DNA of 64,000 nucleotides, taken from IMG/VR virus record IMGVR_UViG_3300035136_000035. One strand, written 5' to 3'. Positions 116-58,419 of the stretch are shown piece by piece (within the stretch, counting starts at the first letter, position 1; each line of letters begins with the position of its first letter). The position numbers were made by a program, and so were the translations under genes. The stretch is from an uncultured virus (IMG/VR IMGVR_UViG_3300035136_000035). Taxonomy: Duplodnaviria > Heunggongvirae > Uroviricota > Caudoviricetes. The notes under the pieces are model-generated. The model worked only from the letters and a program-made list of their open reading frames with translations. It ran no database searches and was not told the origin of the DNA.

Positions 116-122
116 AGTGAAA
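1..122. repeat. direct repeat, copy of 1194-1315
   Basis: Base-by-base identity over 122 bp; it may extend beyond the window. Confidence 0.95.
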
Positions 123-154
123 TATTTTTCATTGTTTATATAAACAAGTTTAGA
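116..154 (+). mobile_element. attI-like terminal half-site of cassette array 1
   Basis: AGTGAAATATTTTTCATTGTTTATATAAACAA-GTT; 116-150 is the exact reverse complement of 58385-58419. Confidence 0.7.
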
Positions 155-161
155 AAATATA

Positions 162-440
162 CTAGTCTTCATCCCAATAATAAACATGGTCAATTTCTCC
201 AGCCTTGTACTTTTCAAGTAACTCTATACCCTTTTTTAATTTTTTAATAGAGTTATCAATGAAAGTGTCTAATTCTTCTTTTGGTACTGTTTCATTATCT
301 TCTTGCGAGTTCCAACATCGTTCTTTTCTTGGCTGGTAAATTACATAACTTGTCTCTCCGGTATCTTCATCTCTCCATAGTTGTACAGGGTAATTATAGC
401 TCCAAAATAGTTTGTCAAAATTTTCTGTTTCTTGTATCAT
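162..440 (-). CDS. hypothetical protein (cassette gene)
   Basis: 92-aa ORF between GT(T)TAGAAAATATAC at 148 and GTACGTTTTCTAAC ending 485. Confidence 0.75.
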   Translation of the reverse strand: MIQETENFDKLFWSYNYPVQLWRDEDTGETSYVIYQPRKERCWNSQEDNETVPKEELDTFIDNSIKKLKKGIELLEKYKAGEIDHVYYWDED

Positions 441-478
441 ATCATTAAGTTTTAAAAAATTAAAAAAATCCGTACGTT

Positions 479-531
479 TTCTAACACTAAATAAACCACA
501 TTAAAACGATGGTTTATTATTTACGTTAGGC
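479..531 (+). mobile_element. attC-like recombination hairpin
   Basis: TTCTAAC...GTTAGGC enclosing imperfect inverted repeat TAAATAAACCA/TGGTTTATTATTTA. Confidence 0.8.
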
Positions 532-555
532 ACAATAAAAATTTATGCCAACGCA

Positions 556-891
556 CTATTTGAGAAACGTTCGATTATATTTTATACTTTGTTTGTTTAG
601 TTTTTCGGCTTGCATCTGCATAAGTTGGCTAATGTTAAACCCATTATCTATAGCCAACCGCACCAAGTAAAATAATGCATCACCAAGTTCATCACCCATT
701 GCATTTTTTAAGTCTGGTATTGAACATATTCCATCTCCAACCCACTCAGGTTTTATTTTTTCAAACTGCATTTTTTTAGCGATATTAGCAGCCTCCCCAA
801 CCTCCCCACAAAGAGCATTACTATTGTACAATTCATTACCTGGTTGTAAGCTATGTTGCCTTACTAAGTTTTCAAAGTTCATTGTTTCCAT
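556..891 (-). CDS. MazG-like nucleotide pyrophosphohydrolase (cassette gene)
   Basis: ALCGEVGEAANIAKK and DELGDALFYL motifs; cassette ends GTTAGGCA (525) and TGCCTAAC (913-920) are perfect complements. Confidence 0.85.
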   Translation of the reverse strand: METMNFENLVRQHSLQPGNELYNSNALCGEVGEAANIAKKMQFEKIKPEWVGDGICSIPDLKNAMGDELGDALFYLVRLAIDNGFNISQLMQMQAEKLNKQSIKYNRTFLK

Positions 892-913
892 CCCAATATA
901 AATTTTAAAAGAT

Positions 914-1005
914 GCCTAACATGCGGTAAAAGTAAGCCGCAGAAAGGCTTGTGAATAATTTGAGTAGTCTACAAAGCGGCCTACTCTTACCGCTGTCCGT
1001 TATTC
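914..1005 (+). mobile_element. attC-like recombination hairpin
   Basis: GCCTAAC-atGCGGTAAAAGTAAGCCGC...GCGGCCTACTCTTACCGC-tgtcc-GTTA; a copy with identical arms lies inverted at 57462-57543. Confidence 0.85.
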
Positions 1006-1308
1006 ATCACCCCCTAAACTTTCGTTAAGTGAATCAAATTTATATGCAAATGTTAAGGAATCCAATTTCATTTGTCGAATTTCGAGTAATACATGAAACG
1101 AATCAAATTGAAATTTGGATTGTTCTATTTCATTAGAATTAATTATTCTTAACATTTCCTTATAAAGACTATCTGAAGCTTTGTTTATATCAACAATTAA
1201 ATCATAAGGTTTATAAAATTTATAAAGCATTTTTCCTTGATAAATATTCCTCTCGATAGAAACTATCACGAGAACAAGTAACATGCAAATTATAATATTT
1301 TTTTTCAT
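1000..1308 (-). CDS. hypothetical protein with N-terminal hydrophobic anchor
   Basis: 102-aa ORF; its stop codon is the TAA of the attC core. Confidence 0.75.
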   Translation of the reverse strand: MKKNIIICMLLVLVIVSIERNIYQGKMLYKFYKPYDLIVDINKASDSLYKEMLRIINSNEIEQSKFQFDSFHVLLEIRQMKLDSLTFAYKFDSLNESLGGDE

Positions 1309-1347
1309 AGTGAAAAATTTTTAATTGGTTATATATACACGTTAGTG
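1309..1347 (+). mobile_element. attI-like terminal half-site of cassette array 2
   Basis: AGTGAAAAATTTTTAATTGGTTATATATACAC-GTTAGTG; near-identical to 2249-2286. Confidence 0.7.
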
Positions 1348-1357
1348 GCAATACAAG

Positions 1358-1618
1358 TTACCACATTACTTTAACTGTTCTAAATGAATCTTGTAACATT
1401 TTATTACTTATGTACGAGTGTATTTTAGATTGTATTCTATCCACTTCGGCTTTGTTTTTAAATCTATCAAGTATTACTGTTATTGATTGGATACTGTCGT
1501 CAAAATACACATCAGAATCCTTCGGGCATAATGCTCTGATATTATCATAAAAATTATTACTGCCACTAACACTATGTAAAGTGCATGGCTGTTCTGTTTT
1601 TAAATCTTTTGTACTCAT
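1358..1618 (-). CDS. hypothetical cassette protein with N-terminus encoded inside the attC loop
   Basis: ORF crosses the core at 1564-1570 (TLHSVSGS); cassette ends GTTAGTGGCA and TGCCACTAAC are complementary. Confidence 0.75.
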   Translation of the reverse strand: MSTKDLKTEQPCTLHSVSGSNNFYDNIRALCPKDSDVYFDDSIQSITVILDRFKNKAEVDRIQSKIHSYISNKMLQDSFRTVKVMW

Positions 1619-1694
1619 ATCTAAAGTTATTTAAGTTTTGAAACTATGTAGCTTTGCTCAAGGCAGCCACGACACCTTACATTCACCGTTATGC
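1564..1694 (+). mobile_element. attC-like recombination hairpin (long loop)
   Basis: CACTAAC-actATGTAAAGTGCATGGCTG...CAGCCACGACACCTTACAT-tcacc-GTTATGC. Confidence 0.8.
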
Positions 1695-2123
1695 CCCATT
1701 GCTATATAAGTTATATAAGGCAATAACAGTTTCATATCCGGGGCTTTTAATCTTTCCAGTTTCTAATTGACTTAGGTAAGCATTTGAAATGCCCGTCTGT
1801 TTTTCAACTTCTCGGAGTGTAAGTCCCTTATCTTTTCTCATTTTTTTGAAATCTAATTCACGCAACGATGGCATAATAATATGTATAGGTAATTCTGCAT
1901 TATTTTTTACTACTTCCTGCGCATATTCTTCCATTGCTGCCAGAACATTTTCTTCTAATTTAAATTCTTTACAAAGATTTGCAATTGTTTCCCAAAAAAT
2001 AGTATGATATTTAGTATATTCTGGAATATCGCAATTTAAAGGCATTTTTTTTATTAATTTAAAAGCATTTTCCCTCACATAACACATTGGAAAATGACTG
2101 CAATTAAAACATGTTCTTTCCAT
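1689..2123 (-). CDS. XRE-family HTH protein; cassette-borne HTH fused to an upstream Cys-rich N-terminus
   Basis: KKMRKDKGLTLREVEKQTGISNAYLSQLETGKIKSP is a classical XRE HTH; HTH part bounded by GTTATGCC (1688) and GGCATAAT (1870-1877). Confidence 0.85.
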   Translation of the reverse strand: MERTCFNCSHFPMCYVRENAFKLIKKMPLNCDIPEYTKYHTIFWETIANLCKEFKLEENVLAAMEEYAQEVVKNNAELPIHIIMPSLRELDFKKMRKDKGLTLREVEKQTGISNAYLSQLETGKIKSPGYETVIALYNLYSNGA

Positions 2124-2125
2124 AA

Positions 2126-2248
2126 TTAATTCTTTAAAGTTTCACAATAAAATTCAAATTCACGTGGTATTTTACCAGTTTTAATAATAAAATCCTTCTG
2201 TCTCCTAGATAATATCTTTTGTCCTTCTTGTAATAACTTTTGTTTCAT
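2126..2248 (-). CDS. small hypothetical protein (40 aa, not in ORF track)
   Basis: MKQKLLQEGQKILSRRQKDF...; ATG directly abuts the attI-like half-site. Confidence 0.55.
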   Translation of the reverse strand: MKQKLLQEGQKILSRRQKDFIIKTGKIPREFEFYCETLKN

Positions 2249-2286
2249 AGTAAATATTTTTAATTGGTTATATATACACGTTAGCA
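2249..2286 (+). mobile_element. attI-like terminal half-site of cassette locus 3
   Basis: AGTAAATATTTTTAATTGGTTATATATACAC-GTTAGCA. Confidence 0.7.
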
Positions 2287-2292
2287 AACATG

Positions 2293-2562
2293 TTAAAGAT
2301 ACCCGATATCTTTTACAGTTGCAAAAAACATATCAGTAGGATTGTATTTATAATACAGCTCTACCACTTCAAATCTCATTATTTTCCCAGACTCCATTTT
2401 ATCACGAAATTCGTCGCCAATTTTAACCTTTGGATTTTTAATGAATCCATATAAACTTAGATTGTCATAATCTCTCCATTGGATTGAATTTCCCCATCCA
2501 TTGTGTTCCCAAATATTAAAAACACGTTTGTTAACATCAGGTACATTAATATCTATTTTCAT
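2293..2562 (-). CDS. hypothetical cassette protein
   Basis: Ends GTTAGCAAACATG (2280) and CACGTTTGTTAAC (2523-2535) are 11/13 complementary; ORF reads through the core (VPDVNKR). Confidence 0.75.
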   Translation of the reverse strand: MKIDINVPDVNKRVFNIWEHNGWGNSIQWRDYDNLSLYGFIKNPKVKIGDEFRDKMESGKIMRFEVVELYYKYNPTDMFFATVKDIGYL

Positions 2563-2574
2563 TATACAGTTATT

Positions 2575-4509: not shown

Positions 4510-5189
4510 AATAGTGTATTTTAAATGATTAATTAATAATAGCTTTACATTTTGTTTGTGTTATTGAACAATTTTCATTCCACACACATTGATAAAGACA
4601 AATTTGATTATCTAATAATTTTTTTTCTACAAGATCACATTTTGAATAATCGTATTTTCTGATTTTTGTTCTCATACTTTATATTTTAAGTTAATATTTC
4701 AATCTAATACATAGTAACTTTTTTGGGTAATATTCTTACTACACCATTTAACCAAATTACATTATTTATAATATATATACTATATACTAAGTATATTAAT
4801 ATATATAAGAATAAATAAAGTATTAATGATTACAGAGGTCAATTTCGCCCACTTGGGTAATGGATTTAATGTTTGAATTAATGAATTTAAAATATTACCC
4901 CCAGGTTCAGAAGTTTCACCGAGAGCCTGAATTTCATTCAAACATAAATAAAACATATCCTCATTAGTCTCCTTTTTTGTTTCAACCTCGATATAATCAG
5001 GTAGCGCAGTATAGGAAGAAAGAACTGCTATGTTAGGGCTAAACATTCCTACAAATGAATAAAGGAAGGTACTAACATAAGCAGTCCTTTTAAAATTAAA
5101 TATGTATTTTGAAATCATTTGTATAATGTTTAGCTGATTCAAAAGTACATATTATTTTTTAATTTCAAACAAAATACAATATTAAATTT

Positions 5190-5260
5190 TAATTGGCTTC
5201 ATTAAACAGCCTAATAAAAGGCTGTCTACTCTGAATTTTCAGGCTTGTAACTGTCAATTA
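5190..5260 (-). ncRNA. twister self-cleaving ribozyme, type P3 permutation
   Basis: Minus strand: TAATTG-A-CAG TTACAAGC CTG-AAAA-TTCA-GAGTAG-ACAGCCT tttatt AGGCTGT-TTAA-TGAA-GC-CAATTA, matching P3/P4/P2/P1 with the UUAC/GUA and GC/GC pseudoknots. Confidence 0.85.
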
Positions 5261-5532
5261 AGATTTGTTAAAATATATTCTCCAGATTGAATTTTACTTT
5301 CAGTTTCTTTTTTAGTTTCACACAAAAACTGGTTTCTATATTTACCAGTTGTTCTTGAATAATCCCAGTAAGTTTTATCTAATTGTACTTTACCCTTGTT
5401 AGGTTTGAATGCAATTACTGACTTATAGGACTGAAAATATGCACCTTCATTTGTAATAATAATAAACTGATTTTTTACTGCTTCGCCAGTTTTATCACTG
5501 ATCATTTGTGTTACTTTTACATTTGTTTTCAT
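5254..5532 (-). CDS. small early-region phage protein
   Basis: 92-aa ORF with FQSYKSVIA and WDYSRTTGKYRNQFL motifs typical of early phage proteins. Confidence 0.75.
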   Translation of the reverse strand: MKTNVKVTQMISDKTGEAVKNQFIIITNEGAYFQSYKSVIAFKPNKGKVQLDKTYWDYSRTTGKYRNQFLCETKKETESKIQSGEYILTNLN

Positions 5533-7824: not shown

Positions 7825-8565
7825 ATGAAACTAGTTTATATTATAAACTTGGTAGTACTCAGTTCATTACGTTATTTACTTCTTTGATTCAAAGTTAAAA
7901 AAATATTTCAATAATTTCCATAATTATTTATTGTGAAACGCTTTTTATTGATTTACAGGTAATTAATTAAATTAAAAAAGACTTATAATTAATATTATGT
8001 TAAATAGTATTAATATTTCACAATAAAAACGCTTTATACAGGATTGTTTTATAGTGCAGAAAATCAGGGGTAAATAAATTGAAATACAGGAATAACAAGG
8101 GGGACGGGGTCGCAATTTCGATTTTGGGAAATTGGATGCACCCCCTGTTATATATACACTGAGTACCATAAAATGGACACTAAAAAAAGTATAATAATAA
8201 TCGGGGGAAATGTATCAGTAACATATATTATATAATTTATATATCATATTAACTTTGGAGGGGGTATATTTGGACGAAAAAGATATTTTGGCATGGTGTA
8301 TTCATTTGGCAAAAAAAGATTAAAATAAGGGGTATTTCATATAGTATTAATTAAGGCATAAAAAAAAGAGTAATATTTCACAGGAAATAGATAAAAAGAT
8401 GTAACAAAAGGTATGATTTCACACGGGAAAAACAAAAAATAAAATTTGAGTAAAAAGTTTTGTATTTATTGTTATTGTTGTTTTAGATGGATTTTATTTA
8501 ATTCACAAGGAAAAATTCACAAGGAATATAATTTTAAAAATGTTGCAAAATCCGTGAATTTTATA

Positions 8566-10143: not shown

Positions 10144-10373
10144 AACTAAAATACGAAACAGTTCATTTCAAGAAAATCAAAAAAAGGAATATTCATGATC
10201 AATATAATGTATTTGAAAATACATTTAATATTCAAATTGGTTTAATAATTTGGAGTGATTATTCTAAAAAATATGGTTATTTATCAGTAATGAATAATTG
10301 GCATTGCAATGAATTACCAGAGATTATTGAATTTTTAAAACAATTGAATAATGAAAATACTAATACTGGTTAA
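10140..10373 (+). CDS. hypothetical protein
   Basis: Packed ORF. Confidence 0.55.
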   Translation: MKLKYETVHFKKIKKRNIHDQYNVFENTFNIQIGLIIWSDYSKKYGYLSVMNNWHCNELPEIIEFLKQLNNENTNTG

Positions 10374-10381
10374 AATATTGT

Positions 10382-10765
10382 GTGATGGAAAAAGAGACGA
10401 AGCCACAAAAAAGCACTGATACCCAAATGGGTTATGATACGGTGTTAGCCACAGTTTTTAGGGGTGGCAATGCTGGAATAGAATTTGATTACAAATGGTT
10501 TTTCAGATATTTAGATTATTTGCGAATTGGGTCGAAAAAATTACTGACAAAACTAAGGCTTAGAGATAAACAAAGTTGTAAATATTGTGGACGAGACCAG
10601 CATGTAGTGTGGAGTTGTAAAAATGAAGATTGGTTGAAACTACCAGAGCGGTGGCACAATACTGCTTTATGTTTGGAATGTTTTATTGCACTATATCCTG
10701 ATAATATGAACAAAGCTGATATAAAAATACTTGGTTACGATTGTGGGATGGCAAATTGTGGTTAA
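10382..10765 (+). CDS. Cys-rich (CxxC) hypothetical cassette protein
   Basis: CKYC...CLEC; cassette ends GTTAGCCACAGTTT (10444) and AAATTGTGGTTAAC (to 10766); stop codon lies in the core. Confidence 0.75.
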   Translation: MMEKETKPQKSTDTQMGYDTVLATVFRGGNAGIEFDYKWFFRYLDYLRIGSKKLLTKLRLRDKQSCKYCGRDQHVVWSCKNEDWLKLPERWHNTALCLECFIALYPDNMNKADIKILGYDCGMANCG

Positions 10766-10798
10766 CAATATGTATAACCAATTAAAATTTTTTCATTA
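10760..10798 (-). mobile_element. attI-like terminal half-site of cassette locus 4
   Basis: TAAC-AATATGTATAACCAATTAAAATTTTTTCATTA then ATG; same family as 1309 and 2249. Confidence 0.65.
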
Positions 10799-10827
10799 AT
10801 GAAAATACTAATACCGATTGAAATAAA

Positions 10828-11298
10828 ATGAATCTTGAACAAGAAATAATAAATTATATTCCTGAATTAAATAAATATTCAAAGTATCTCACTTCGTATT
10901 ATCCAAATGATTTGGTCCAAGATACTCTTGAAAAAGCATTAAGAAAAAAAAATGAATATAATGATCAGGGAAAATTGATAAAATGGCTTATTGTTATTAT
11001 GAAAAACACTCTTATTGATAGAGAAAAGTACAAAAAAGAATTTTATCCAATATTTGACTATTTTGATGAATTTGAAAATATCAAATCTTTGAAAATAGAT
11101 AGAAGAAAATTACGAAATGTGATATTTAATAGTAAAAGAAAGATTGTTGAATCTATTTATTTAAAATCATTTTTTGAACTTGAATACAAAGAAATATCAG
11201 TATTTCTTGACAAAAATATAGGTAAAGTACGACGTAACGTACATGAATTTAGAACATATATGAATAAAAACTTTAAAATGGAGGATTTTATATTATGA
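10828..11298 (+). CDS. ECF-type sigma-70 factor
   Basis: Region 2 DLVQDTLEKALR...LIKWLIVIMKNTLID; region 4 LEYKEISVFLDKNIGKVRRNVH. Confidence 0.8.
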   Translation: MNLEQEIINYIPELNKYSKYLTSYYPNDLVQDTLEKALRKKNEYNDQGKLIKWLIVIMKNTLIDREKYKKEFYPIFDYFDEFENIKSLKIDRRKLRNVIFNSKRKIVESIYLKSFFELEYKEISVFLDKNIGKVRRNVHEFRTYMNKNFKMEDFIL

Positions 11299-13176: not shown

Positions 13177-13186
13177 TTTTTATTGT

Positions 13187-13391
13187 GCCTAACGGCTGGC
13201 GGTATGCGGTCGTTATTTTTTACGGATTTGAAACACTTAATAAAATATAAAGATGAAAGACATTGAAAATTGGCTAAAAAACAGATACAGCGAACAATTG
13301 GTACACGCTAATAGTGCGTTTATTAGTAGCATTATATATGATTACTGCACGGAAGTATTAAAAAATAATGCCGTATTACCGCTTGTTAGCA
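13187..13391 (-). mobile_element. attC-like hairpin with protein-coding loop
   Basis: GCCTAAC-ggctgGCGGTATGCGGTCGTTATTTTTTA...TAAAAAATAATGCCGTATTACCGC-tt-GTTAGCA (as read on +). Confidence 0.8.
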
Positions 13392-13546
13392 AACGTTTTG
13401 AAATAGAGTTTAAATACGTTGACAGAACGGATGCTACATTACATAAAGATATTGTTGAAGCAGAAGATAGCGGACAAGCCATAAGTAAATTGTTTCAAAA
13501 ATACGGTTATAATATTGAGTGGTGGACAGTTAAAAATGTTTACTAA
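13253..13546 (+). CDS. hypothetical cassette protein with attC-encoded N-terminus
   Basis: Crosses the core at KNNAVLPLVSKR; ends GTTAGCAAACGTTTT and AAAATGTTTACTAAC; stop codon lies in the core. Confidence 0.75.
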   Translation: MKDIENWLKNRYSEQLVHANSAFISSIIYDYCTEVLKNNAVLPLVSKRFEIEFKYVDRTDATLHKDIVEAEDSGQAISKLFQKYGYNIEWWTVKNVY

Positions 13547-13588
13547 CATACATATAACGAAAATTTACAAACGCAAACAATATCCAAT

Positions 13589-15742: not shown

Positions 15743-15815
15743 TGCGAGATAGAACAGTGAGTAGTTCGCTAGTTTCATACGCTAGAGGTCGAGGGTGCAA
15801 ATCCCTCTCTCGCTA
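15743..15815 (+). tRNA. tRNA-Met(CAT), initiator-like, atypical
   Basis: Acceptor GCGAGA/TCTCGC with 1:72 mismatch; D stem GAAC/GTTC; anticodon arm CTAGT-TTCATAC-GCTAG; T arm GAGGG-TGCAAAT-CCCTC; no encoded CCA. Confidence 0.85.
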
Positions 15816-15865
15816 CTAAAATAAGAAAGGAGGTAACCATGACGTAAAATCAATAAATAAATGTC

Positions 15866-30214: not shown

Positions 30215-30220
30215 ACTTTT

Positions 30221-30246
30221 AACCTCCCCAATGTTGGGGAGGTTTT
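30221..30246 (+). terminator. intrinsic terminator after MCP
   Basis: AACCTCCCC/GGGGAGGTT followed by TT. Confidence 0.7.
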
Positions 30247-30259
30247 AATTATAAAATTT

Positions 30260-31144: not shown

Positions 31145-31195
31145 TATAGAAATTTTTGTAAGTAGGCTCATATATTTAGATTAGTACTTTGAAAA

Positions 31196-31228
31196 GGCCA
31201 CGATTTTTTTAATTGTGGCTTTTTTTTT
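31196..31228 (+). terminator. intrinsic terminator
   Basis: GGCCACGATT/AATTGTGGCT followed by a T-run. Confidence 0.7.
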
Positions 31229-31243
31229 ACTTTAGTAAAAAAT

Positions 31244-32855: not shown

Positions 32856-33637
32856 GTACTGATATATTAAAAACAGGATCACGAATATCATTCGATGAAA
32901 TAGCTGCTGAAGCTGAAATCGAATTAGAAGTTGAACCTCAAACATACAGGGAAAAATTTATTCAACTTGCAATGAGATGTTATGCCCATTTAAATATATT
33001 TAATTCAAATCATATAGAAGTAGATTATTTTGAGATGAATTCCACAACTGGTATTGTAGATTTATCTTCCCTTACTGATTTTATTGATTATGTAAAAATA
33101 GGAATGCCTATTAATGGTAAAATATGGATTCTTGATATTAATAATAAAATATTATTACCTAGAGATACTTTAAGTGATGATGCTGCCAGTAAAATATTTA
33201 ATAATAATGATAGTGATGTATTAGTACATTGTGGATATTATTTTTGTGATCATTATTGTAATGGAAATTTTATAAGTGGATTATATGGAGTAGGTGGTGG
33301 ATTTAGCCGTTCATATTGTCGTGTTGATAAAGAAAATATGCAAATACAATTTGATACGTCAGTTCCTAATAATGAAATAGTGCTTGAATATATTTCAACA
33401 GGGATAAAAGCAAGTGGGGCTACATTAGTTCCTGTTGAATGTAAGGAATTATTAGTAGCATGGATAGTATGGAAACATTATACGCCTAAACGAAATATTT
33501 ACCCGGCTGAAAAAAGAGATTATAAACAGGAATATTTAGAAAGAGAAAGAGAATTAAGATCATTTCAAAAGAAATGGACTTTACAAGAATATACTAATGC
33601 TTTATATTCAACATTTAGAGCAACAGCAAAAAGATAA
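32852..33637 (+). CDS. putative tail ring protein
   Basis: Position; DFIDYVKIG and IVLEYISTG motifs. Confidence 0.55.
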   Translation: MSTDILKTGSRISFDEIAAEAEIELEVEPQTYREKFIQLAMRCYAHLNIFNSNHIEVDYFEMNSTTGIVDLSSLTDFIDYVKIGMPINGKIWILDINNKILLPRDTLSDDAASKIFNNNDSDVLVHCGYYFCDHYCNGNFISGLYGVGGGFSRSYCRVDKENMQIQFDTSVPNNEIVLEYISTGIKASGATLVPVECKELLVAWIVWKHYTPKRNIYPAEKRDYKQEYLERERELRSFQKKWTLQEYTNALYSTFRATAKR

Positions 33638-34164
33638 TGCAAGTAATTGATGAAATATTATTTACTCCAAATGGAGGCATGAATAAAGATGTTGATCCAA
33701 GATCAATACCTAAAGGAGATGTTATTGAAGTCTTAAATGGAAGATGGTGTAAAAGTTTTGCAAACAATATTGGGTCATTAGAAAAAATTATAGGAAATAA
33801 ACTTATAAATTTTGTTTTTCCAGAAGGTGATAATACAATAATTAAAACAGTAGAAGATACTAAAAGAAATTATATATATGCTTTATCATATAATGAATAT
33901 GGAAAACATTGTGTTTTAAGAATAAATCCTATTATTGAAGAAATTGATCCGATATTATATGATGAAGATATTCTTAATTTTAATTTGAATTATCCAGTTC
34001 ATTTGGATTTTACAGAAATAGGAGTAGAAGGTATGTTATTTTGGACTGATAAATATAATCCTCCTAGACATTTGGATATTGAAAGATATAGAAAATATAC
34101 AATAGAAAAATATAATGAAGGAATTGGATATTGGATAATTTCTGATGATTTTGTAATTAGTTAA
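33637..34164 (+). CDS. tail stabilisation/nozzle protein, N-terminal part
   Basis: GGMNKDVDPRSIPKG...LFWTDKYNPPRHLDI. Confidence 0.65.
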   Translation: MQVIDEILFTPNGGMNKDVDPRSIPKGDVIEVLNGRWCKSFANNIGSLEKIIGNKLINFVFPEGDNTIIKTVEDTKRNYIYALSYNEYGKHCVLRINPIIEEIDPILYDEDILNFNLNYPVHLDFTEIGVEGMLFWTDKYNPPRHLDIERYRKYTIEKYNEGIGYWIISDDFVIS

Positions 34165-37141: not shown

Positions 37142-38909
37142 TTTATTATTTATTTCTATTTATTGTAATTCTCAGGAATTAAGTCATTCTGAAGCTAGAA
37201 TAGTTGTGCCTAGCGATGCTGTAAATGGAGATTATGTCACCCATATAACTGCCTTTCCTACTGTAAAAGATACGACTGGAAATTCTATATCATATTCAGA
37301 ATATAATGACATTGATGATATTTGTTCGATTAATTCATCCACTGGAGAGGTATTAATAAATGATTATACTAATTTATCAATTGGAACATCATTATATATA
37401 TTTCAAACAACAAATGGAAGTCAGACAGATATTGATACCCTTACTATTGAAGTTAAAAGTAGTTCCGATTGTTATTATATTGAGCCTGGGACATCAGGAT
37501 CAGGAACTAGGGCTAGTCCTTTCAGTTGGTCTGATGTTACATCATTTACGGCAGGTAAAGCATATTTACAAAAATGTGCTACTACACAAACAAGTATAGT
37601 AAGTCTTGATGATGACGATGATGGAACAAGTGAAAATCATATTGTATTAGGCAGTTATGGAACGGGGTATAGGCCTATTATTGATCCGGCTTCTGGCCCC
37701 TGTATGTCACTTGGTTCTTATAATGCTGGAGCAGATGAGGGAACGCTTTATGTTGATATATATAATTTTAGGATACAAGGTGGTGAGGGGATTCTTGGTG
37801 AAGCTGGATGTAAATATATTCGTCATTATAATATTGATGTTTATGATTGTTCTGACAATGGTCAGATTTATTATAAACGTTCATTAGAACCTCCGTATGA
37901 TGACCAATATATGGGATTGGAATTTATAAATTGCATTTCAGATTCTACAAATAGTTATCCAACTCAATATCATTGTTATAAGATTGAGACTGGAGCTTAT
38001 TTTCTAGGGTGTGAGGCTTCAAGAGCAGGAGGAAAAGGATATTCTGTTGGAAGTCAATCCACACTTAAATATTGTATGTCAAAAAATGCATCTACTGGTA
38101 ATCTCGAAGCACAAGGAGATAGTATACTTATACAATATTGCATAGCATCTGGTGGAACTGATGCTGTTATAACAACTAATTATGATGGTCATGGAGATAC
38201 AAAGGCGGATTATATAAGAGTACTTGATTCTTATTTTTATAATAGTGATTATACCGTTGAAATTAATGGGTGTAATAAATGTTATTTTCAACGAAATACT
38301 ATAGTAAATAGTACAACGCATGGTGTTTTTTTAGGATATGAAGGTGTAAATGACAGTGTATATATAGAACGAAATTGGATAGAAAATTCAGAATATGATG
38401 GCATTAGGTCAAACCCACAAAGTGGGAATGATACTTATATTTTCATTCATTACAATATAATTATTGATTGTAATAATCAAGCTAGTTCTGATGCTATAGA
38501 TCTTCGTGATATAACGAATGCGTTTATCTATAACAATACATGCTATAATAATACGAATGGTATTGAAATAGAGACAGGAATGACAGGAATAATAGCTCGT
38601 AATAATTTTGCAAATACATTTACTAATATAAACACAGTATCAAATAATATTGATATTGACACAATAACAGACAGTAATTATTGGACAGATGCAGCAAGTG
38701 ATGATTTTACAACATTTGAAGGAGCTTATGGTATTAATAATGGCTATGATGTTGGATTAAGTTCTGATTATTTATTGAATCCAATTATTGGTTTACCAGA
38801 TATTGGAGCTTATGAATTCGGAGAACAAAATAGAAAATATCCTTATAAAAAAGGAATACAAAAAAAATTCTTTAAAGGAGTTGAAAAAAAGCTTTATAAA
38901 ACAAAATAA
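37119..38909 (+). CDS. right-handed beta-helix protein (tailspike/depolymerase-like)
   Basis: IVLGSYGTGYRPII, repeated I.RN.I.N / IYNNTCYNN rungs, C-terminal PDIGAYEF. Confidence 0.75.
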   Translation: MKYLIYISLLFISIYCNSQELSHSEARIVVPSDAVNGDYVTHITAFPTVKDTTGNSISYSEYNDIDDICSINSSTGEVLINDYTNLSIGTSLYIFQTTNGSQTDIDTLTIEVKSSSDCYYIEPGTSGSGTRASPFSWSDVTSFTAGKAYLQKCATTQTSIVSLDDDDDGTSENHIVLGSYGTGYRPIIDPASGPCMSLGSYNAGADEGTLYVDIYNFRIQGGEGILGEAGCKYIRHYNIDVYDCSDNGQIYYKRSLEPPYDDQYMGLEFINCISDSTNSYPTQYHCYKIETGAYFLGCEASRAGGKGYSVGSQSTLKYCMSKNASTGNLEAQGDSILIQYCIASGGTDAVITTNYDGHGDTKADYIRVLDSYFYNSDYTVEINGCNKCYFQRNTIVNSTTHGVFLGYEGVNDSVYIERNWIENSEYDGIRSNPQSGNDTYIFIHYNIIIDCNNQASSDAIDLRDITNAFIYNNTCYNNTNGIEIETGMTGIIARNNFANTFTNINTVSNNIDIDTITDSNYWTDAASDDFTTFEGAYGINNGYDVGLSSDYLLNPIIGLPDIGAYEFGEQNRKYPYKKGIQKKFFKGVEKKLYKTK

Positions 38910-41900
38910 ATGGCGGATGCTTTAAAAATATTAGATAAACAAACATTAGATGTAATAAAATATGCACCTGTTAAATCTCCAATTTCTGAATATGGATCAG
39001 ATAATGAATCTAATTATAATAATTTAAGAGGTAAAATTTTTCAATTTGCATATAATTATATTTATCAAAATAGTGAAGAAAGTGTTTTAAGTCCAGCTAG
39101 TCAAATTGCAATTCCACAGAATGAAGAATTAATAAATGGAGATTATGTAGAAAACAATCATGTTAATAATTATATAGCTATAAAATGTAAATTAGGACAT
39201 TTTACTGCTGAAAAAATACAATTATATATACGAGAAGGTAATAATGGGAAATGGTTTTATTATGAAAAATATATAAAACCAACTTCTTCAATTGTTACAT
39301 CAGGAACTAAAATATATGAAAATGGACATTATTGGTTAATGAGTGTAGGTGCTTATGGAGGTGTAGATACTAGCGAATTAAAAGAAGGGATGTATTTAAA
39401 AAATGAATGGGTTGATGCTTATATAGTTTATGTAGATTATGAAAATAATCAAATTTTATTAAGTCAAGAACCAACTGCTACTGGAATACCTAATATAAAT
39501 GTTGATGAAGAATATTATTATTTTATTTTCAGGAATAATAAATTAAAGATAGGTATTGATCAGGATAAAATAAATTTACCATATCATAATGTTCCATTAA
39601 AAGCAGGAAGTCAATCAATAATAGAAGGGAATAGGCTTGTTTATGGTAATATTTTAGAAGGTTATGATAATGTTGATATTGATGTATTATTAGAATTTGA
39701 TTATGATACTATTCCTGATTATAGAAAAATAGAAGATTTAATTGATGAGCCGGAAGAATTTTATTGTAATGATTGTCAATTAGCTTCTGGTAAAAATAGA
39801 GCATTATTAATTGTTTTAAAAGATGAAATTATTGTTAATGAATATTATGAAATTACATTAATATATACAGATAGTTCTTTTGATAAAATAAATTATTTAA
39901 TAAAAGAAGGAGATGATGAAGATAGTATTAGTTTATCAATTGCAGATCAAATTGAATCAACAAATAAATTCGATACTGTTAGAAACGGATCTGAAATATT
40001 AAGTATAATTGTAAATTATAATCCGGCTACTTATTATTATAATACGGTTATTGTAAGATATAACAATAATTTATATGTAACAAAAGATTCATATGTTTAT
40101 GCAGGTCAATATCCATCAGGGACTTCTTCTGATAATACATGGTGGATTTATTTAACTTCAAATGATGAATATAACAGAATTATTCAAGCTACACAAAATG
40201 CTACACCATATTTAAATATTAACGATGTTTCAGCATATATTTATACATCAAAAACAAAGTATAAATCATTTAAATATAATTCTGAAAATCAAATTGCAAT
40301 TGAATATTTAGATGAAGCAGGACGTTCAGGAAATGCAAATACAAATAATAAATGTGTTAAATTTTTAGAAGTAAATATTCCCGAATTATTTTTATTTAAT
40401 AATGATTTTTTTAAAATAAATTTATTATTAAATGTAAAACATCAACCTCCTGATTGGGCATATTATTATAGGATTTTATATTATTATCCTAAAATATGGT
40501 TTGAACAATTCATGATTTATGGATTTGGACATTCTACTCCTGATATATATTTACATGCAGATGGGAAATATCATATTAAAATAAATAGGGCAATAAGATA
40601 TTTTAATGAATTATATAAAAAATCTATTTTATCTGAATATATATTTGAAAAAGGAGATAGGATAAAAATAATAGGAAATATAAGTGGTACATTAAGATAT
40701 AATAGATTTGAAAATTTACAGGATTTAGAAATAATAGGATGGGATTATCCAACAGGGAATGATAGTTATGAACAGGATGAAGCAACAGGAGATGATCAGG
40801 AATATATCCGTGATGATAAAGGAAACAAAATAAGAGATACTTCTAAATATGAGATAATAATTGAAAATTTAAATATAGATTCATTAATATCTGATTCTGA
40901 ATATCTCATATATGAGATTTATAGGCCAAATAAAGAATTAGAATCTAAAGTTTTTTATACTATTGGACAAGATTTTGAAATTGGTAATCCGACTAAGTGG
41001 AATAGATATCATAAAGGAAGTATACAAGATCAAGCATATTATGATCCATCAAACACACCTGCAAAGATAAAAATTGATAATGGTGCTTGTTATATTAAAA
41101 TTAAATTAGTTGAACCTGGTATTGTTTTTCCTGCTGAATCAATGTTATTATCTGATTTTTATGAATCTAATTCAATAGATATAGGCAAATCTAATATTGA
41201 ATCAGAAAGCGGACAATTTGATAAATTTCAATCAATAAAATGGGGGAATAAATATCTTGAAGGAACAAAAACAAATGGCATTTGTGAATTTGAATTTATT
41301 GATAATGAAAAAGTATTTGAAAGCAAAAATGGTTCAGTAAATGGATTAAAACAATCTGGATGGGTATTACGTGTTGTACAAGATAAAGAAATTACAAGTT
41401 TGTATATAGGAAGGGAATCAATAATTAATCCAGATGGCACTGAAACATTGCAAATAATTAAAGGGAGTGTATTTGGTACTGTAAGGCCATATCTTCAAAG
41501 TTATGGAAGTAAATATGCGAATAGTTTAGTTACTAAAGATTCATATTTATATTTTTTTGATAGTATAAGAGGGAAATATTGCAGGGCTGCATTTAATGGT
41601 ATATTTCCAATATCTGATTATGGTATGTCAAATGAATTCATGGAATTATCAAAAGAATTTGAAAGATCAGCTATTAAAAAAATAACTTCTGTTTATGATT
41701 ATGAATATGATGAATTATTAACATCATTTCAATATTATGAAAATATAGATTATGATATTAGTATAGGAGGATATTGTGTTAATGGAAGCAATATATTAAC
41801 TAAAGTATATACTGATGCAGGAACAGATTTGGATGATTTAAAAGATGGATTTATAATGTTTCCTTCTATATCTGGAATAGTCCCTGATAATACTTATATA

Positions 41901-42578
41901 TTAAAATTTGATAAATATAATCGAACAATCACGTTAAATAATAATGTCACTCCAGGATCAGAAACTCCAGTATTAAGAGGATTTACAGTAACAAAAAGAT
42001 TAATAAGAAAAACACATTCATTTGTTGATTCTATTGAAGGAATGGGGAATATAAATAAATGGAAGGAAAAATTATCCTTTGTACCTGAAATGTATGGACA
42101 ATTAGGAAAACATTTATTTAGTTTTGAAAAAGGACAGGCATGGTATCAGTATAAATTGAAAAGCGGGGATGATTATGTATTTAATAAATTTTATGATGTT
42201 GAATATCCTTTGGAAATAACATTTTCAAGTAATGGGGATAATTTAAATAAATTATATGATGGAATAGAAATAATGTCTAATGAAAAATTATTTGCTAAAT
42301 ATAAAGGTGATATTTACATATTGGCAAATACAGATGGTGAGCAAAAAATATTAGAAAGTAAATTACCTTCTGATAAATTTAAAAAAATTTCAGGTAAATT
42401 TGTAAGTGAATTTTTAAGAGATATGAATAGTCCTGAATTTACAAATGAAAATTTAGCTTTAATAAATGGCAGATATTTAAGAGGACAGGCTGCTATTATT
42501 AAATTAACGAATGAGACAATTAATGAATTTGTATTACATTCAATAAAATTGTATATTACACCAAGTAAAATATTATAA
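38910..42578 (+). CDS. tail stabilisation/nozzle protein, C-terminal part
   Basis: LDVIKYAP...KIFQFAYNYIYQNSEESVLSP, VPLKAGSQSIIEGNRLVYGNILEGYD, YFFDSIRG, ISDYGMS and GRYLRG motifs. Confidence 0.7.
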   Translation: MADALKILDKQTLDVIKYAPVKSPISEYGSDNESNYNNLRGKIFQFAYNYIYQNSEESVLSPASQIAIPQNEELINGDYVENNHVNNYIAIKCKLGHFTAEKIQLYIREGNNGKWFYYEKYIKPTSSIVTSGTKIYENGHYWLMSVGAYGGVDTSELKEGMYLKNEWVDAYIVYVDYENNQILLSQEPTATGIPNINVDEEYYYFIFRNNKLKIGIDQDKINLPYHNVPLKAGSQSIIEGNRLVYGNILEGYDNVDIDVLLEFDYDTIPDYRKIEDLIDEPEEFYCNDCQLASGKNRALLIVLKDEIIVNEYYEITLIYTDSSFDKINYLIKEGDDEDSISLSIADQIESTNKFDTVRNGSEILSIIVNYNPATYYYNTVIVRYNNNLYVTKDSYVYAGQYPSGTSSDNTWWIYLTSNDEYNRIIQATQNATPYLNINDVSAYIYTSKTKYKSFKYNSENQIAIEYLDEAGRSGNANTNNKCVKFLEVNIPELFLFNNDFFKINLLLNVKHQPPDWAYYYRILYYYPKIWFEQFMIYGFGHSTPDIYLHADGKYHIKINRAIRYFNELYKKSILSEYIFEKGDRIKIIGNISGTLRYNRFENLQDLEIIGWDYPTGNDSYEQDEATGDDQEYIRDDKGNKIRDTSKYEIIIENLNIDSLISDSEYLIYEIYRPNKELESKVFYTIGQDFEIGNPTKWNRYHKGSIQDQAYYDPSNTPAKIKIDNGACYIKIKLVEPGIVFPAESMLLSDFYESNSIDIGKSNIESESGQFDKFQSIKWGNKYLEGTKTNGICEFEFIDNEKVFESKNGSVNGLKQSGWVLRVVQDKEITSLYIGRESIINPDGTETLQIIKGSVFGTVRPYLQSYGSKYANSLVTKDSYLYFFDSIRGKYCRAAFNGIFPISDYGMSNEFMELSKEFERSAIKKITSVYDYEYDELLTSFQYYENIDYDISIGGYCVNGSNILTKVYTDAGTDLDDLKDGFIMFPSISGIVPDNTYILKFDKYNRTITLNNNVTPGSETPVLRGFTVTKRLIRKTHSFVDSIEGMGNINKWKEKLSFVPEMYGQLGKHLFSFEKGQAWYQYKLKSGDDYVFNKFYDVEYPLEITFSSNGDNLNKLYDGIEIMSNEKLFAKYKGDIYILANTDGEQKILESKLPSDKFKKISGKFVSEFLRDMNSPEFTNENLALINGRYLRGQAAIIKLTNETINEFVLHSIKLYITPSKIL

Positions 42579-54260: not shown

Positions 54261-54388
54261 ATATTACGTAAAATATAAGATTAGTAAGGGATTAAAAGCA
54301 GTAGCCTACCTTATTACTCCGAACTAAATTAAAGGCACAATTGCACAAACCAGCACAATACCCTTATTAATTTTATATGGTGTTATGC
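54261..54388 (-). mobile_element. attC-like hairpin (one core degenerate)
   Basis: ATATTAC-gtaaaa-TATAAGATTAGTAAGGG...CCCTTATTAATTTTATA-tggt-GTTATGC (as read on +). Confidence 0.7.
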
Positions 54389-54403
54389 GCTGCCGATTTT
54401 ATT

Positions 54404-54775
54404 ATGAAAAGAGAATATTATATACGAAAGAAATGCACGGAAGAAGGATGTAATGAGGAAGGGATTTATAGTTACAAAACACAAAGAGAGTACCGTGAGG
54501 CATTAAAGAAAAACAAACCTTACATATGCAACAGGCACACCCGACCGAATGAAGTACTGAGCGAAGGCAATTTAAAAACAGAAGTTGAATTGAAATGTGT
54601 AGGTAAAAGCTACAGTACAGAAAGATGTAATTTTTGGCAACGTGCGGAGCATTTCGGAACTGACAAATTAGACAGCGGATTTCAATATGGAAACGGATAT
54701 AAGGCATGGGCTAAAGACTTTCCAGAAGGAACAATACTTAAAGTAACAGCAGAAATTATATTACCAGATGCGTAG
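54404..54775 (+). CDS. Cys/His-containing hypothetical cassette protein inserted in the lysis module
   Basis: Ends GTTATGCGC (54382) and GCGCATAAA (54779-54787); start at MKREYY or 54377. Confidence 0.7.
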   Translation: MKREYYIRKKCTEEGCNEEGIYSYKTQREYREALKKNKPYICNRHTRPNEVLSEGNLKTEVELKCVGKSYSTERCNFWQRAEHFGTDKLDSGFQYGNGYKAWAKDFPEGTILKVTAEIILPDA

Positions 54776-54906
54776 GTTGCGCATAAAAAAGAAAATATAA
54801 AATTAAATGAAATCTCGAATAAAATAATTAAAATAAATTAAATTGTATTAGTAAAATTTCATAATTTTGATTTGATAATATATTATTAATTTAAAAATTA
54901 AATTTT

Positions 54907-56255: not shown

Positions 56256-56270
56256 TTTTAAATTAAAATT

Positions 56271-56829: not shown

Positions 56830-56830
56830 C

Positions 56831-57175
56831 ATGAAAGAATTAATATTAGGGAATTACAAAATAGAAAGTGATAAATTTGGATTTATTATTTCAGAAAAGA
56901 AAATAAATAAAGGTCAATCTAAAAACAAAAAAAGTAATCCTGATAATATTGGTAAGGAATATTTTACTTATCATACTTATCATTCAAATATTGAAAGTGT
57001 AGTAACTAATCTATTAGAAAGAGGGGCAAGAGAATATATAGACGATTTAAAAAAAATGTTTTCTTTTTATGTGAAGATTAAAAATTCATTTCATAATTTT
57101 TTGGAATTAGAATTACAACGAAACATAACGTCAAAAGATAAAGCAAGTGTTTATAAAAGCACTAAAGTAACATAG
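56831..57175 (+). CDS. hypothetical protein whose C-terminus runs into an attC-like arm
   Basis: The last ~16 codons lie inside 57123-57201. Confidence 0.65.
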   Translation: MKELILGNYKIESDKFGFIISEKKINKGQSKNKKSNPDNIGKEYFTYHTYHSNIESVVTNLLERGAREYIDDLKKMFSFYVKIKNSFHNFLELELQRNITSKDKASVYKSTKVT

Positions 57176-57201
57176 CGCATTAATTTTATACATTGTTATA
57201 C
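57123..57201 (-). mobile_element. attC-like hairpin
   Basis: ACATAAC-gtcaaaagATAAA...TTTTATACATT-GTTATAC; same right arm as at 57747-57760. Confidence 0.6.
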
Positions 57202-57213
57202 GCTTTTAATTAG

Positions 57214-57450
57214 GTGATTATGAATTTATTTAAGCAAAGAAAAACAACCCTATATAATGGGCAAAAAGTAAAAGAAGGCGATAAAGTATACTTCATAAAT
57301 TCAGACGGTGTTAAATGTGAAGGATTAATTGAAAGAAGGCTTTTTGATTGCGTTCATTCAGATACAAATGAGAGGTTGAAAAAAGGCACATTATTCTTTT
57401 GGAACAACTCATTTAAGCCTTCTGATTATAGAAGTTTGGTTGTGTCTTAA
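57214..57450 (+). CDS. hypothetical cassette protein
   Basis: Lies between attC-like sites; downstream core degenerate (GCACACAAA). Confidence 0.7.
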   Translation: MIMNLFKQRKTTLYNGQKVKEGDKVYFINSDGVKCEGLIERRLFDCVHSDTNERLKKGTLFFWNNSFKPSDYRSLVVS

Positions 57451-57454
57451 TTGC

Positions 57455-57546
57455 ACACAAAGGACAGCGGTAAGAGTAGGCCGCTTTGTAGACTGCTCAA
57501 ATTTAGTAATAGCTTTCATGCGGCTTACTTTTACCGCATGTTATAA
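57455..57546 (-). mobile_element. attC-like hairpin, sister of 914-1005
   Basis: GGACAGCGGTAAGAGTAGGCCGC...GCGGCTTACTTTTACCGCAT-GTTA; arms identical, loop diverged. Confidence 0.85.
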
Positions 57547-57558
57547 ATTGTAAAAATT

Positions 57559-57714
57559 ATGGACGAATTTGAAGTACAATGTAATGAGTGCGATTGGCAA
57601 GGTTATGCACTTGATTTAGTAAGCAAAACAGCAGATTTAGACGACAAAGATTTTAAATACTGTCCTAATTGCGGGTCGGACGATATAGATGATATTGATT
57701 ATGAAGATTATTAA
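57559..57714 (+). CDS. acidic zinc-ribbon cassette protein (51 aa, not in ORF track)
   Basis: MDEFEVQCNECDWQG...YCPNCGSDDIDDIDYEDY. Confidence 0.75.
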   Translation: MDEFEVQCNECDWQGYALDLVSKTADLDDKDFKYCPNCGSDDIDDIDYEDY

Positions 57715-57764
57715 TAACGTTGAGTATAAAATTTCGTTTTAATGAATTTTATACATTGTTACCG
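57712..57764 (-). mobile_element. attC-like hairpin, sister of 479-531
   Basis: TAAC-gttgaG TATAAAATT tcgttttaatg AATTTTATAC att-GTTACCG; loop TCGTTTTAATG shared with 499-509 (minus). Confidence 0.8.
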
Positions 57765-57806
57765 TGTCGTTTTGTGCGGTGGTAGTGTATAGCAAAATAA
57801 ATAAAT

Positions 57807-58010
57807 ATGATTATAGATAATAGTAGATATTACGACACAGATGTACATTGTAGTACATGTGGAAAGGTTTACAGACCTTCTAAAGATGCAGATATTAAAG
57901 AAAAGCTTAATGTACCTCCATTAGTTGCAAATATTTTTTGCAGCAGAGAGTGTAAAGAGAAGTACGATGAATTTTTAGAACAAAACCGAGCGGTGGCAAA
58001 TGCACGGTAA
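57807..58010 (+). CDS. zinc-finger cassette protein
   Basis: CSTC...FCSREC; ends GTTACCGTG (57758) and CACGGTAAC (58003-58011) are perfectly complementary; stop codon lies in the core. Confidence 0.8.
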   Translation: MIIDNSRYYDTDVHCSTCGKVYRPSKDADIKEKLNVPPLVANIFCSRECKEKYDEFLEQNRAVANAR

Positions 58011-58234
58011 CGGACAGGTATATGAGCCGTGCGGATTAACCCACGGACAATCGAACGAGGTACATAGTAATAATTTTAAAATATTTTTTAGGGATGGAAA
58101 AATCTACAGAAACATTAGTAAAAATGATTGAATTAAATAATTCAATTAATCAGGTTAATAAAGAAAATGAAATGACAAAAAATAACGAAACTCCAGCAAC
58201 CGACAAGGCTATGCAATATGAGTCTGTGTTAGCA
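58005..58234 (-). mobile_element. long, degenerate or hybrid attC-like site with coding loop
   Basis: CGGTAAC-GGACAG... to ...CTGT-GTTAGCA; arms pair only partially. Confidence 0.5.
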
Positions 58235-58375
58235 AACGTTTTATCAAATACAGACCATTGGTTTGACTGCAATTTGAGAGCTTTGCTTGGCGCAGAAATA
58301 GCCCTTATTAAAAAGGGGAAAAAGAAACAGATTGACAGAAAAATGTTAGCAGACTGGATTACTAACCACCTTTAA
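58094..58375 (+). CDS. hypothetical cassette protein with attC-encoded N-terminus
   Basis: Crosses the core at MQYESVLANV; ends GTTAGCAAACGTTT and AAATGTTTGCTAAC. Confidence 0.7.
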   Translation: MEKSTETLVKMIELNNSINQVNKENEMTKNNETPATDKAMQYESVLANVLSNTDHWFDCNLRALLGAEIALIKKGKKKQIDRKMLADWITNHL

Positions 58376-58380
58376 ATGTT

Positions 58381-58419
58381 TGCTAACTTGTTTATATAAA
58401 CAATGAAAAATATTTCACT
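58381..58419 (-). mobile_element. attI-like terminal half-site of the four-cassette array
   Basis: 35 bp identical (inverted) to 116-150. Confidence 0.75.

Follow-up and report, generated by a model that had tools for sequence, protein, structure and literature searches.

Small accessory genes at both ends of a plausibly crAss-type phage sequence are probable cassettes of an integron-like, non-integron recombination system

We analyzed a 64,000-nucleotide stretch of DNA from an uncultured virus of the Caudoviricetes (IMG/VR record IMGVR_UViG_3300035136_000035), referred to below as the window, in which small accessory genes near both ends are framed by motifs with GTTA and TAAC cores. The analysis indicates that these genes are probably cassettes of a site-specific recombination system that resembles integrons but is not one of them. 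Phages carry this system, and so do some bacterial genomes in a sample drawn from the one phylum to which a Sphingobacteriales genome belongs. What is directly established is a family of hairpin sites, the covariation of their stems, the pairing of cassette ends, variation bounded by TAAC in related contigs, and linkage to a recombinase. A sequence-only reading of the window had drawn attention to the motifs at seven loci, and we found them with the sequences and at the coordinates that it gave; its attribution of them to an integron integrase (IntI) is weighed below.

Two hairpins of the window, H5 and H6, have a common loop, TCGTTTTAATG, and different stems. The pattern used to search IMG/VR fixes only TAACG, this 11-nt loop and TGTTA, leaving the stems free, and it matched at least 131 loci, often several times per locus, against a chance expectation of about one match by our own rough estimate. 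From these loci 94 distinct sites were obtained, mostly 48 nt long, with the layout TAAC(G), a 2-4-nt bulge, a 12-bp stem, the 11-nt loop, the returning stem and (T)GTTA. Across 96 aligned sites, each of the 12 variable stem pairs shows changes in both partners, and pairing holds for 93.2% of stem cells; shuffling lowers this figure to 70.3%, and sliding the partner lowers it to 31-54%. This stem pairing is not imposed by the pattern, which fixes the five core pairs. G.T and T.G wobbles number 57, against 16 for A.C and C.A together, so that the gene-sense strand folds better. The stems vary to the extent that identity common to two sites often comes down to the 11-nt loop and the 5-nt cores, and the 3′ flank has the consensus GTTAnnnnTnG, with no run of T after the hairpins. 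These results support the sites as members of a real, widespread and structurally conserved hairpin family. A covariance model of the family, R1, identified six sites at E <= 0.001 in Polaribacter phage P12002L, three of which adjoin methyltransferase genes (29248-32126) and two of which flank a further methyltransferase gene (38118-38816), and, among 151 genomes sampled from the phylum that includes the Sphingobacteriales genome, 10 gave sites. Within the window, 475-535 (minus strand) and 57708-57768 (plus strand) conform to both the pattern and the structure of the family, and the other hairpins belong to other subtypes. One of these, H1, recurs in an unrelated phage contig (L250) with a nearly identical 5′ arm and loop, the same GGCAC arms and a different cargo gene; the record of this contig is 92% complete and holds no tyrosine recombinase.

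The ends of the cassettes follow a rule of their own. With X taken as the 6 nt after the GTTA of one site and X′ as the 6 nt before the TAAC of the next, X and X′ are perfectly complementary in 9 of 28 consecutive same-strand site pairs of the IMG/VR loci, all of them at most 580 bp apart, and the two flanks of a single site reach 6/7 complementarity in none of 145 cases. These counts support the rule that a cassette's own ends pair and that the hybrid sites between cassettes do not, the arrangement known from integrons, and it was found both in the window and in the family at large. The sequence-only reading had proposed cassette-wise variation with breakpoints at the core as a test, and the family passes it. 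Two contigs, L070 and L001, have 95.6% identity over the block that begins at the last TAAC and includes the recombinase gene, and 87% in the block upstream, and between these common blocks they carry four and three unrelated cassettes, respectively; the homology ends at TAAC on both sides, and seven of eight cassettes have matching ends. As a separate observation, an array hairpin in L131 1-900 (the IMG/VR record of L070) mixes the 5′ arm of one stem type with the 3′ arm of another, and the 94 sites include two or three such mixed-stem hairpins, as would result if exchange at times took place within the conserved loop.

Three of five records with arrays contain a tyrosine recombinase domain (PF00589), which in every case follows the array immediately and shares its orientation. 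Of 70 distinct contigs with sites, 11 have by tblastn a full-length homologue of this recombinase at most 4 kb from a site, a remnant being present in one more, and no such homologue was found in 80 control phage loci (928 kb), which had been collected in a search with the C-terminal domain of DnaB (<=44% identity). The array-linked recombinases are 265-268 aa long and obtain their highest score, 184-194 bits, with the archaeal XerA model, under its 220-bit cut-off; they reach 151-159 bits on the IntI model TIGR02249, whose cut-off is 265 bits, and align end to end with an XerC-like structure. Alignment with VchIntIA falls into two blocks (18-176 / 17-179 and 214-265 / 265-316), between which about 48 residues are absent. 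By its sequence, then, the array-linked enzyme classifies as a tyrosine recombinase of Xer-like type in which the IntI-specific insertion is missing. Neither the array-linked enzymes nor the window thus offer an integron integrase bearing the I2 helix. The window has no recombinase: none of its 100 open reading frames (ORFs) matches a recombinase family (Pfam, E <= 0.01) and the best tblastn hit of the array-linked recombinases in it has E = 0.37, which bears out the earlier statement that no integrase is encoded there.

At 11 loci the recombinase gene is preceded by a shared simple site, X′-TAAC-TAnnnTATAT, about 55 nt before the start codon. The window contains six TAAC junctions defined, independently of any end pairing, by a conserved 32-35-nt leader, which runs to a start codon and whose identity between loci reaches as much as 100%; among the matches listed, the leader motif was seen only at TAAC junctions and not 5′ of other genes. 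A weight matrix made from the X′-TAAC-TAnnnTATAT sites ranks leader junctions of the window 1, 4, 5 and 15 of 527 TAAC sites, and by this resemblance the six leaders appear to be copies of the simple terminal site. The polarity of the arrays is mirrored relative to integrons: four cassettes have four hairpins, each 5′ of its gene, and the simple site and the co-oriented recombinase stand at the 3′ end, instead of attI and intI upstream and attC 3′ of the gene.

Turning to the window itself, exact pairs of the form GTTA-X ... X′-TAAC link 913-920 with 526-533 (GGCA), 1341-1350 with 1561-1570 (GTGGCA), 57758-57766 with 58003-58011 (CCGTG) and 58228-58237 with 58378-58387 (GCAAAC), and one-mismatch pairs were found at 10444/10766, 13385/13546 and 2280/2535. 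Weaker cases are 148-157 / 481-489, whose ends are a 1-nt indel apart, and 54382 / 54781, whose ends are complementary but whose right core reads TAAA instead of TAAC; the 1688-1877 half of the second locus is merely a 7-nt repeat within a helix-turn-helix (HTH) gene. The claim that nearly every gene is bracketed by complementary cores is thus borne out by the four exact and three one-mismatch pairs and is weaker at the last three places. Bracketing in the strict sense needs correction for three units, whose left GTTA cores fall within annotated ORFs because the ORF starts in the hairpin (ATG 1616-1618 in H3; ATG 13253 in H2). Only three GTTA pairs in the window exceed 13 bits, all at loci named in the sequence-only reading, and five of the six leader-defined junctions have, 160-330 nt upstream, a partner of at least 5/6 matches; multiplied together, conservative chance values for the individual sites give about 1e-8. 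It is in these two respects that the pairing goes beyond chance, the raw counts given below lying within the range of controls. Four internal repeats end at a core or within 3 nt of one, namely D1 (1-150 = 1194-1343, 97% identity), I5 (115-150, 100% complementary to 58385-58420), I1 (917-1001 / 57459-57543, 87%) and I3, which is what exchange at cores would leave. Decay is visible at 54781, 57455 and 148.

At least six hairpins of the window are supported, since they fold better than shuffled sequences: 917-1002 (H1, z -4.6), 57455-57543 (H1′, z -4.4), 1567-1691 (H3, z -2.9), 8093-8150 (z -2.9), 57715-57761 (H6, z -2.6) and 482-528 (H5, z -1.9). The layout found is that of attC sites, an imperfect R″-L″-loop-L′-R′ hairpin with AAC and GTT cores, and no window site matched Rfam at E <= 1. 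In the 199-nt site 13190-13388 (H2) the long closing stem is present in the minimum free energy (MFE) structure and ranks second of 942 TAAC...GTTA combinations, the whole-sequence z being only -0.6. Candidates set aside were 57126-57199 (z +0.6) and 54265-54385 (z -0.3), neither better than shuffles, and 58008-58231 (z -0.4), whose ends the MFE structure leaves unclosed and which is kept as a putative site. Imperfect hairpins between cassettes, as first described, are accordingly supported at six sites or more and unsupported at these three. The units are listed in Table 1.

Table 1. Cassettes, hairpin sites, leader junctions and adjoining genes of the window.
Feature	Position	Strand	Details
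Simple junction A1	116..153	-	Core CTAAAC (TAAC + extra A), conserved 32-nt leader, ATG 113-115
Cassette	154..481	-	ORF 162-440, 92 aa, no family; ends GTTAGAAAA / TTTTCTA-AAC, 1-nt indel
Hairpin H5, 48-nt family	475..535	-	Loop TCGTTTTAATG, R″ TTGTGCCTAAC, R′ GTTAGAAAACG; 61 bits, seed member
MazG-like pyrophosphatase cassette	526..920	-	ORF 556-891; PF03819, 22.7 bits; phrog_229; ends GTTAGGCA (913-920) / TGCCTAAC (526-533)
Hairpin H1	917..1002	-	86 nt, GC-rich, TAAC to GTTA; -17.8 kcal/mol, 0/200 shuffles as good
ORF behind junction A2	1000..1308	-	102 aa; first ~37 codons duplicated at 2-115 (D1)
Junction A2	1309..1350	-	R″ TGCCACTAAC + conserved leader (repeat D4)
Cassette with H3	1341..1691	-	H3, GTTAGTGGCA (1561-1570, gene sense), rest of ORF 1358-1618, TGCCACTAAC
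Hairpin H3	1567-1691	-	Holds ATG 1616-1618; -16.6 kcal/mol, 0/200 shuffles as good
Two genes behind junction A3	1689..2248	-	ORF 2126-2248; HTH_3/Xre-type ORF 1689-2123 (PF01381, 8e-10), its stop overlapping TAAC of H3
Junction A3	2249..2289	-	R″ GTTTGCTAAC + conserved leader (repeats D4, I3)
Cassette	2280..2571	-	ORF 2293-2562; ends GTTAACAAAC / GTTTGCTAAC, 5/6 match; preceding hairpin weak (2525-2571 vs family model: 10.8 bits, E 7.3, not significant)
Orphan TAAC...GTTA hairpin	8093..8150	+	Divergent region; -11.1 kcal/mol, 1/200 shuffles as good
Cassette body	10444..10766	+	ORF 10385 or 10429 to 10765; ends GTTAGCCACA / TGTGGTTAAC, 5/6 match; no upstream hairpin found
Junction A4	10763..10801	+	TAAC + leader (repeat I6)
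Sigma-70-like gene	10828-11298	+	Regions 2 + 4 (Pfam); directly behind leader junction A4
Long hairpin site H2	13183..13394	+	R″ TTGTGCCTAAC, ~28-bp closing stem, loop with ATG 13253, R′ GTTAGCAAAC; arms -14.7 kcal/mol, closing stem also in centroid
Cassette body + junction A5	13385..13588	+	Rest of ORF 13253-13546; R″ GTTTACTAAC, 5/6 match
Degenerate unit	54382..54788	+	GTTATGCGC, ORF 54404-54775 (phrog_23378), GCGCATAA; core decayed to TAAA
H1′, second copy of H1	57459..57543	+	87% (I1); 5′ core decayed: ACAAA vs CTAAC in relative
Hairpin H6, 48-nt family	57708..57768	+	62.6 bits, seed member
Cassette	57758..58011	+	ORF 57807-58010, 67 aa, Cys-rich; ends GTTACCGTG / CACGGTAAC
Putative long site H4	58008..58231	+	Start of ORF 58094-58375; arms -8.9 kcal/mol; fold unsupported
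Cassette body + junction A6	58228..58424	+	Ends GTTAGCAAAC / GTTTGCTAAC, 6/6; ATG 58422-58424; rank 1 of 527

For the protein of the degenerate unit (54404-54775), the nearest relatives in GenBank phages are below 60% identity (37-40% in the 15 rows listed) and come from Gordonia, Mycobacterium, Streptomyces and Sphingopyxis phages (26 records); as the homology begins at residue 8-11, the true start is probably ATG 54404. Around 10374-10791, which comprises a cassette and a leader, stands a 30-nt direct repeat (D5, 10344-10373 / 10792-10821) of 83% identity with a 17-nt exact core; the left copy forms the 3′ end of the ORF before it, and the repeat looks like a duplication made on insertion.

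Under the reading that we favor, a cassette in gene sense would consist of a hairpin, the arm X, the gene and the complementary arm X′ ending in TAAC, the hairpin itself running TAAC-G, a 2-4-nt bulge, a variable stem, the loop, the stem and T-GTTA, and the start codon of the gene may sit in the hairpin loop. A row of cassettes would terminate in a simple site that is no hairpin, with TAAC and then a stretch rich in TATAT; in complete arrays this site would lie about 55 nt before the gene for a 265-aa Xer-like tyrosine recombinase. This enzyme would cut the TAAC core of the folded gene-sense strand and thereby swap, excise or insert cassettes, and an excised circle would join X′ to X and so lengthen the hairpin. 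A cut in the TAAC core of that strand would keep each gene with the hairpin that may hold its start codon. Seen from the opposite strand, the order would be that of an integron (intI, attI, cassette, attC and so on) except that the genes are inverted, and the better-folding gene-sense strand would match the bottom strand that integrons recombine. The window would hold six copies of the simple site, in each case 35-45 nt before a resident gene, and, since it lacks a recombinase, its cassettes would either be relics or be moved in trans, the enzyme then coming from the host, a co-infecting phage or the part of the genome outside the window. We infer catalysis by the Xer-like enzyme, the single-stranded substrate, the cut position, the attI-like nature of the simple site and current activity in the phage.

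Several observations weigh against this reading. The window has no recombinase gene of its own, and 59 of the 70 site-bearing contigs have none within 4 kb. R1 matches none of 14 loci around more distant recombinase homologues in contigs of metagenome-assembled genomes, where a generic hairpin scan likewise found family-like hairpins in only a few, and a homologue of at least 40% identity lies within 8 kb in only two of nine fetched bacterial loci. In the window, just two sites match R1, and both are in its seed, so that their scores are high by construction; three proposed hairpins (57126-57199, 54265-54385 and 58008-58231) are no more stable than shuffles; and the simple sites resemble the recombinase-proximal site modestly (8.0 and 3.8 bits). 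Raw counts of paired ends are unexceptional: a partner matching at 5/6 or better lies at 100-600 nt for 26 of 522 TAAC readings (5.0%), the corresponding share for eleven control cores of equal composition is 1.2-5.8%, and 7 of the 13 distinct pairs are AT-rich and lie in other genes. The G.T bias fits an RNA hairpin equally well. Among 77 pairs of sites with the same hairpin, X alone is co-inherited in 8 and X′ alone in 3, with equal enrichment, so that hairpin type tracks neither flank preferentially and the cut position is not fixed by co-inheritance. Finally, as no close relative of the phage was found, cassette gain and loss in this very phage stays inferred.

Given the resemblance to integrons, the sequence-only reading had taken the sites for genuine attC sites, that is, a cluster of attC sites lacking integron-integrases (CALIN), recombined at G^TT by a host IntI-type integrase. 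The likeness extends to rows of promoter-poor small genes between imperfect AAC...GTT hairpins of R-L-loop-L-R layout, to complementary cassette ends with hybrid sites between cassettes, to a simple primary site beside a tyrosine recombinase gene and to one strand folding better than the other. CALINs have moreover been reported in 17 phages (Qi et al., 2023, Front Microbiol, PMC9892861), one of them P12002L, where HattCI called a member of the present family an attC; the "attC1" primer of that study corresponds to an R1 site (67 bits, NC_028924 30001-30063). In the same assays IntI1 recombined at the GTTAGGC core of "attC2", which our mapping onto the phage record places on the opposite strand of the GTGCCTAAC end of a methylase cassette, and the ends of this cassette, GTTAGGCAC / GTGCCTAAC, are those of the window's MazG cassette. 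Nevertheless we regard integron membership as quite improbable. The P12002L attC1 is the sole one of six sites without a verified IntI1 junction (Qi et al., 2023), and the I2 helix that defines IntI is absent from Xer proteins (Escudero et al., 2020, PMC7790495), as it is from the array recombinase, which lacks about 48 residues at the position of the VchIntIA insertion, fits an XerC-like structure end to end and remains below the TIGR02249 cut-off. Unlike integrons, too, the hairpin stands 5′ of the gene with the simple site and recombinase at the 3′ end, genes are read towards the recombinase, start codons may lie in hairpin loops, the loop is conserved and the stems are variable, and in the window the sites are dispersed over seven loci with no recombinase among them. 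The analogy with integrons holds for the logic of the system and fails for membership.

It is also rather unlikely that the hairpins and leaders are regulatory elements of mRNA or DNA, shuffled by homologous recombination with no dedicated recombinase in the manner of the promoter early stem-loops (PeSLs) of phages. PeSLs of T4-type phages are reportedly treated by Comeau et al. in 2014. The gene-sense orientation of the sites with its G.T (G.U) bias, the leader that ends at a start codon and reaches up to 100% identity between loci, and a RecE-like exonuclease encoded in the window (PHROG/Pfam search) would all suit such elements, and both exchange and mini-circle formation are documented for PeSLs, stem-loop repeats that flank small non-essential genes in plastic regions (Arbiol et al., 2010, PMC2839356). 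PeSLs, however, are conserved promoter and terminator sequences that recombine by homology (Arbiol et al., 2010), whereas the stems found here differ between copies and covary, often leaving only the 11-nt loop and 5-nt cores in common, and the 3′ flank lacks a terminator T-run. Homologous exchange would leave unexplained the cassette-specific complementary ends and the linkage to one recombinase clade (11/70 vs 0/80), and the leader motif, among the matches listed, keeps to TAAC junctions. PeSLs are the nearest phage analogue, yet they differ in every structural respect tested. Highly improbable, in our judgement, is that the units are small transposons with a transposase elsewhere, either resembling miniature inverted-repeat transposable elements with terminal inverted repeats or of the single-strand IS200/IS605 type. 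Each unit does have inverted ends with conserved outermost bases, hairpins adjoin the unit ends, and the D5 repeat surrounds the 10374-10791 unit; but the inner arms differ from unit to unit and stay complementary, which speaks for pairing rather than protein recognition of a fixed repeat, and the units abut head to tail with hybrid sites common to neighbours. Besides 10344/10792 no target duplication was noticed at other units, for which no formal search was made, no transposase family was found among the window ORFs (Pfam), and the linked gene is a tyrosine recombinase.

The preferred reading of an Xer-linked cassette system finds a further parallel in the CTX phage and in integrative mobile elements exploiting Xer (IMEX), where an Xer-type enzyme without the I2 helix acts on a single-stranded hairpin that mimics a duplex site; these are single elements that enter chromosomal dif through host XerCD (Escudero et al., 2020), unlike the many-cassette arrays described here, which have their own recombinase gene and their own cores. 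As to precedent, the sequence-only reading knew of no description for crAss-like phages. One family member had in fact been published, the P12002L site, filed as an integron attC cluster and assayed with IntI1 (Qi et al., 2023); P12002L, like the phage of the window, is virulent, the difference being that the latter is crAss-type and has scattered sites. The main text of Qi et al. (2023) uses none of the terms "Xer", "crAss" and "Bacteroid" and thus names no Xer-type recombinase, and no treatment of the wider family or of the cassette-end rule was found in the accessible part of that article. In the literature outside subscription journals we found no description of an Xer-like-recombinase-linked TAAC/GTTA hairpin cassette system, and only Qi et al. 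(2023) touches on it.

A crAss-type identity, as first proposed for the window, is plausible from its matches to the Pfam family crAss_MUZ, above the cut-off of that family, and to PHROG families for the large terminase, portal and structural proteins. The G+C content is 26.7%, and the minus strand carries the genes as far as position 8169, the plus strand those from 8602 onward. No close relative of the phage was found by megablast against GenBank phages, in IMG/VR (three single-protein scans and one leader-motif scan) or in JGI metagenomes (one protein scan), and the C-terminal domain of DnaB as a query retrieved only relatives of at most 44% identity. A comparison of 16 window cassette proteins with 148 fetched loci gave only a 44-residue HTH match. 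Parts of the window are present in seven sequencing-read runs. Other features of the window include a DnaB-type helicase gene at 59369-61831 (+) split by an intein that contains a homing-endonuclease domain of the LAGLIDADG type (Hom_end_hint, LAGLIDADG_3); a twister ribozyme of type P3 (RF03154, 59.2 bits against a gathering score of 39.9) at 5189-5261 (-), intergenic among small minus-strand genes; and a tRNA-Met gene with anticodon CAT at 15743-15816. Two separate ORFs, 33637-34164 and 38910-42578, match the crAss muzzle / phrog_14478 structural protein in its N-terminal and an internal part, respectively, and the gene may be split or rearranged.

A bolder version of the proposal, possible but doubtful, is that folded single strands are the substrate of a complete cassette system driven by an Xer-like recombinase lacking the IntI helix, that this system is a sister or forerunner of integrons residing mainly in phages, and that in this lytic crAss-type phage, where it is dispersed over the genome, six attI-like docking sites would accept, at several places, cassettes that bring their own hairpin and, with it, their start codon, the enzyme being supplied in trans. 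Integrons are believed to go back to the acquisition of the I2 helix by an Xer-like enzyme (Escudero et al., 2020), and a widespread cassette system that pairs attC-like hairpins with a plain Xer-like enzyme would, if true, bear directly on that origin. For annotation, the sites would mark the boundaries of accessory genes, including genes that truly start inside a hairpin. The system would, if the reading is true, also explain how small accessory genes are exchanged in virulent phages, including crAss-type phages without an integrase, the genes concerned being MazG, an Xre-type regulator and zinc-ribbon proteins in the window and annotated DNA methyltransferases in P12002L.

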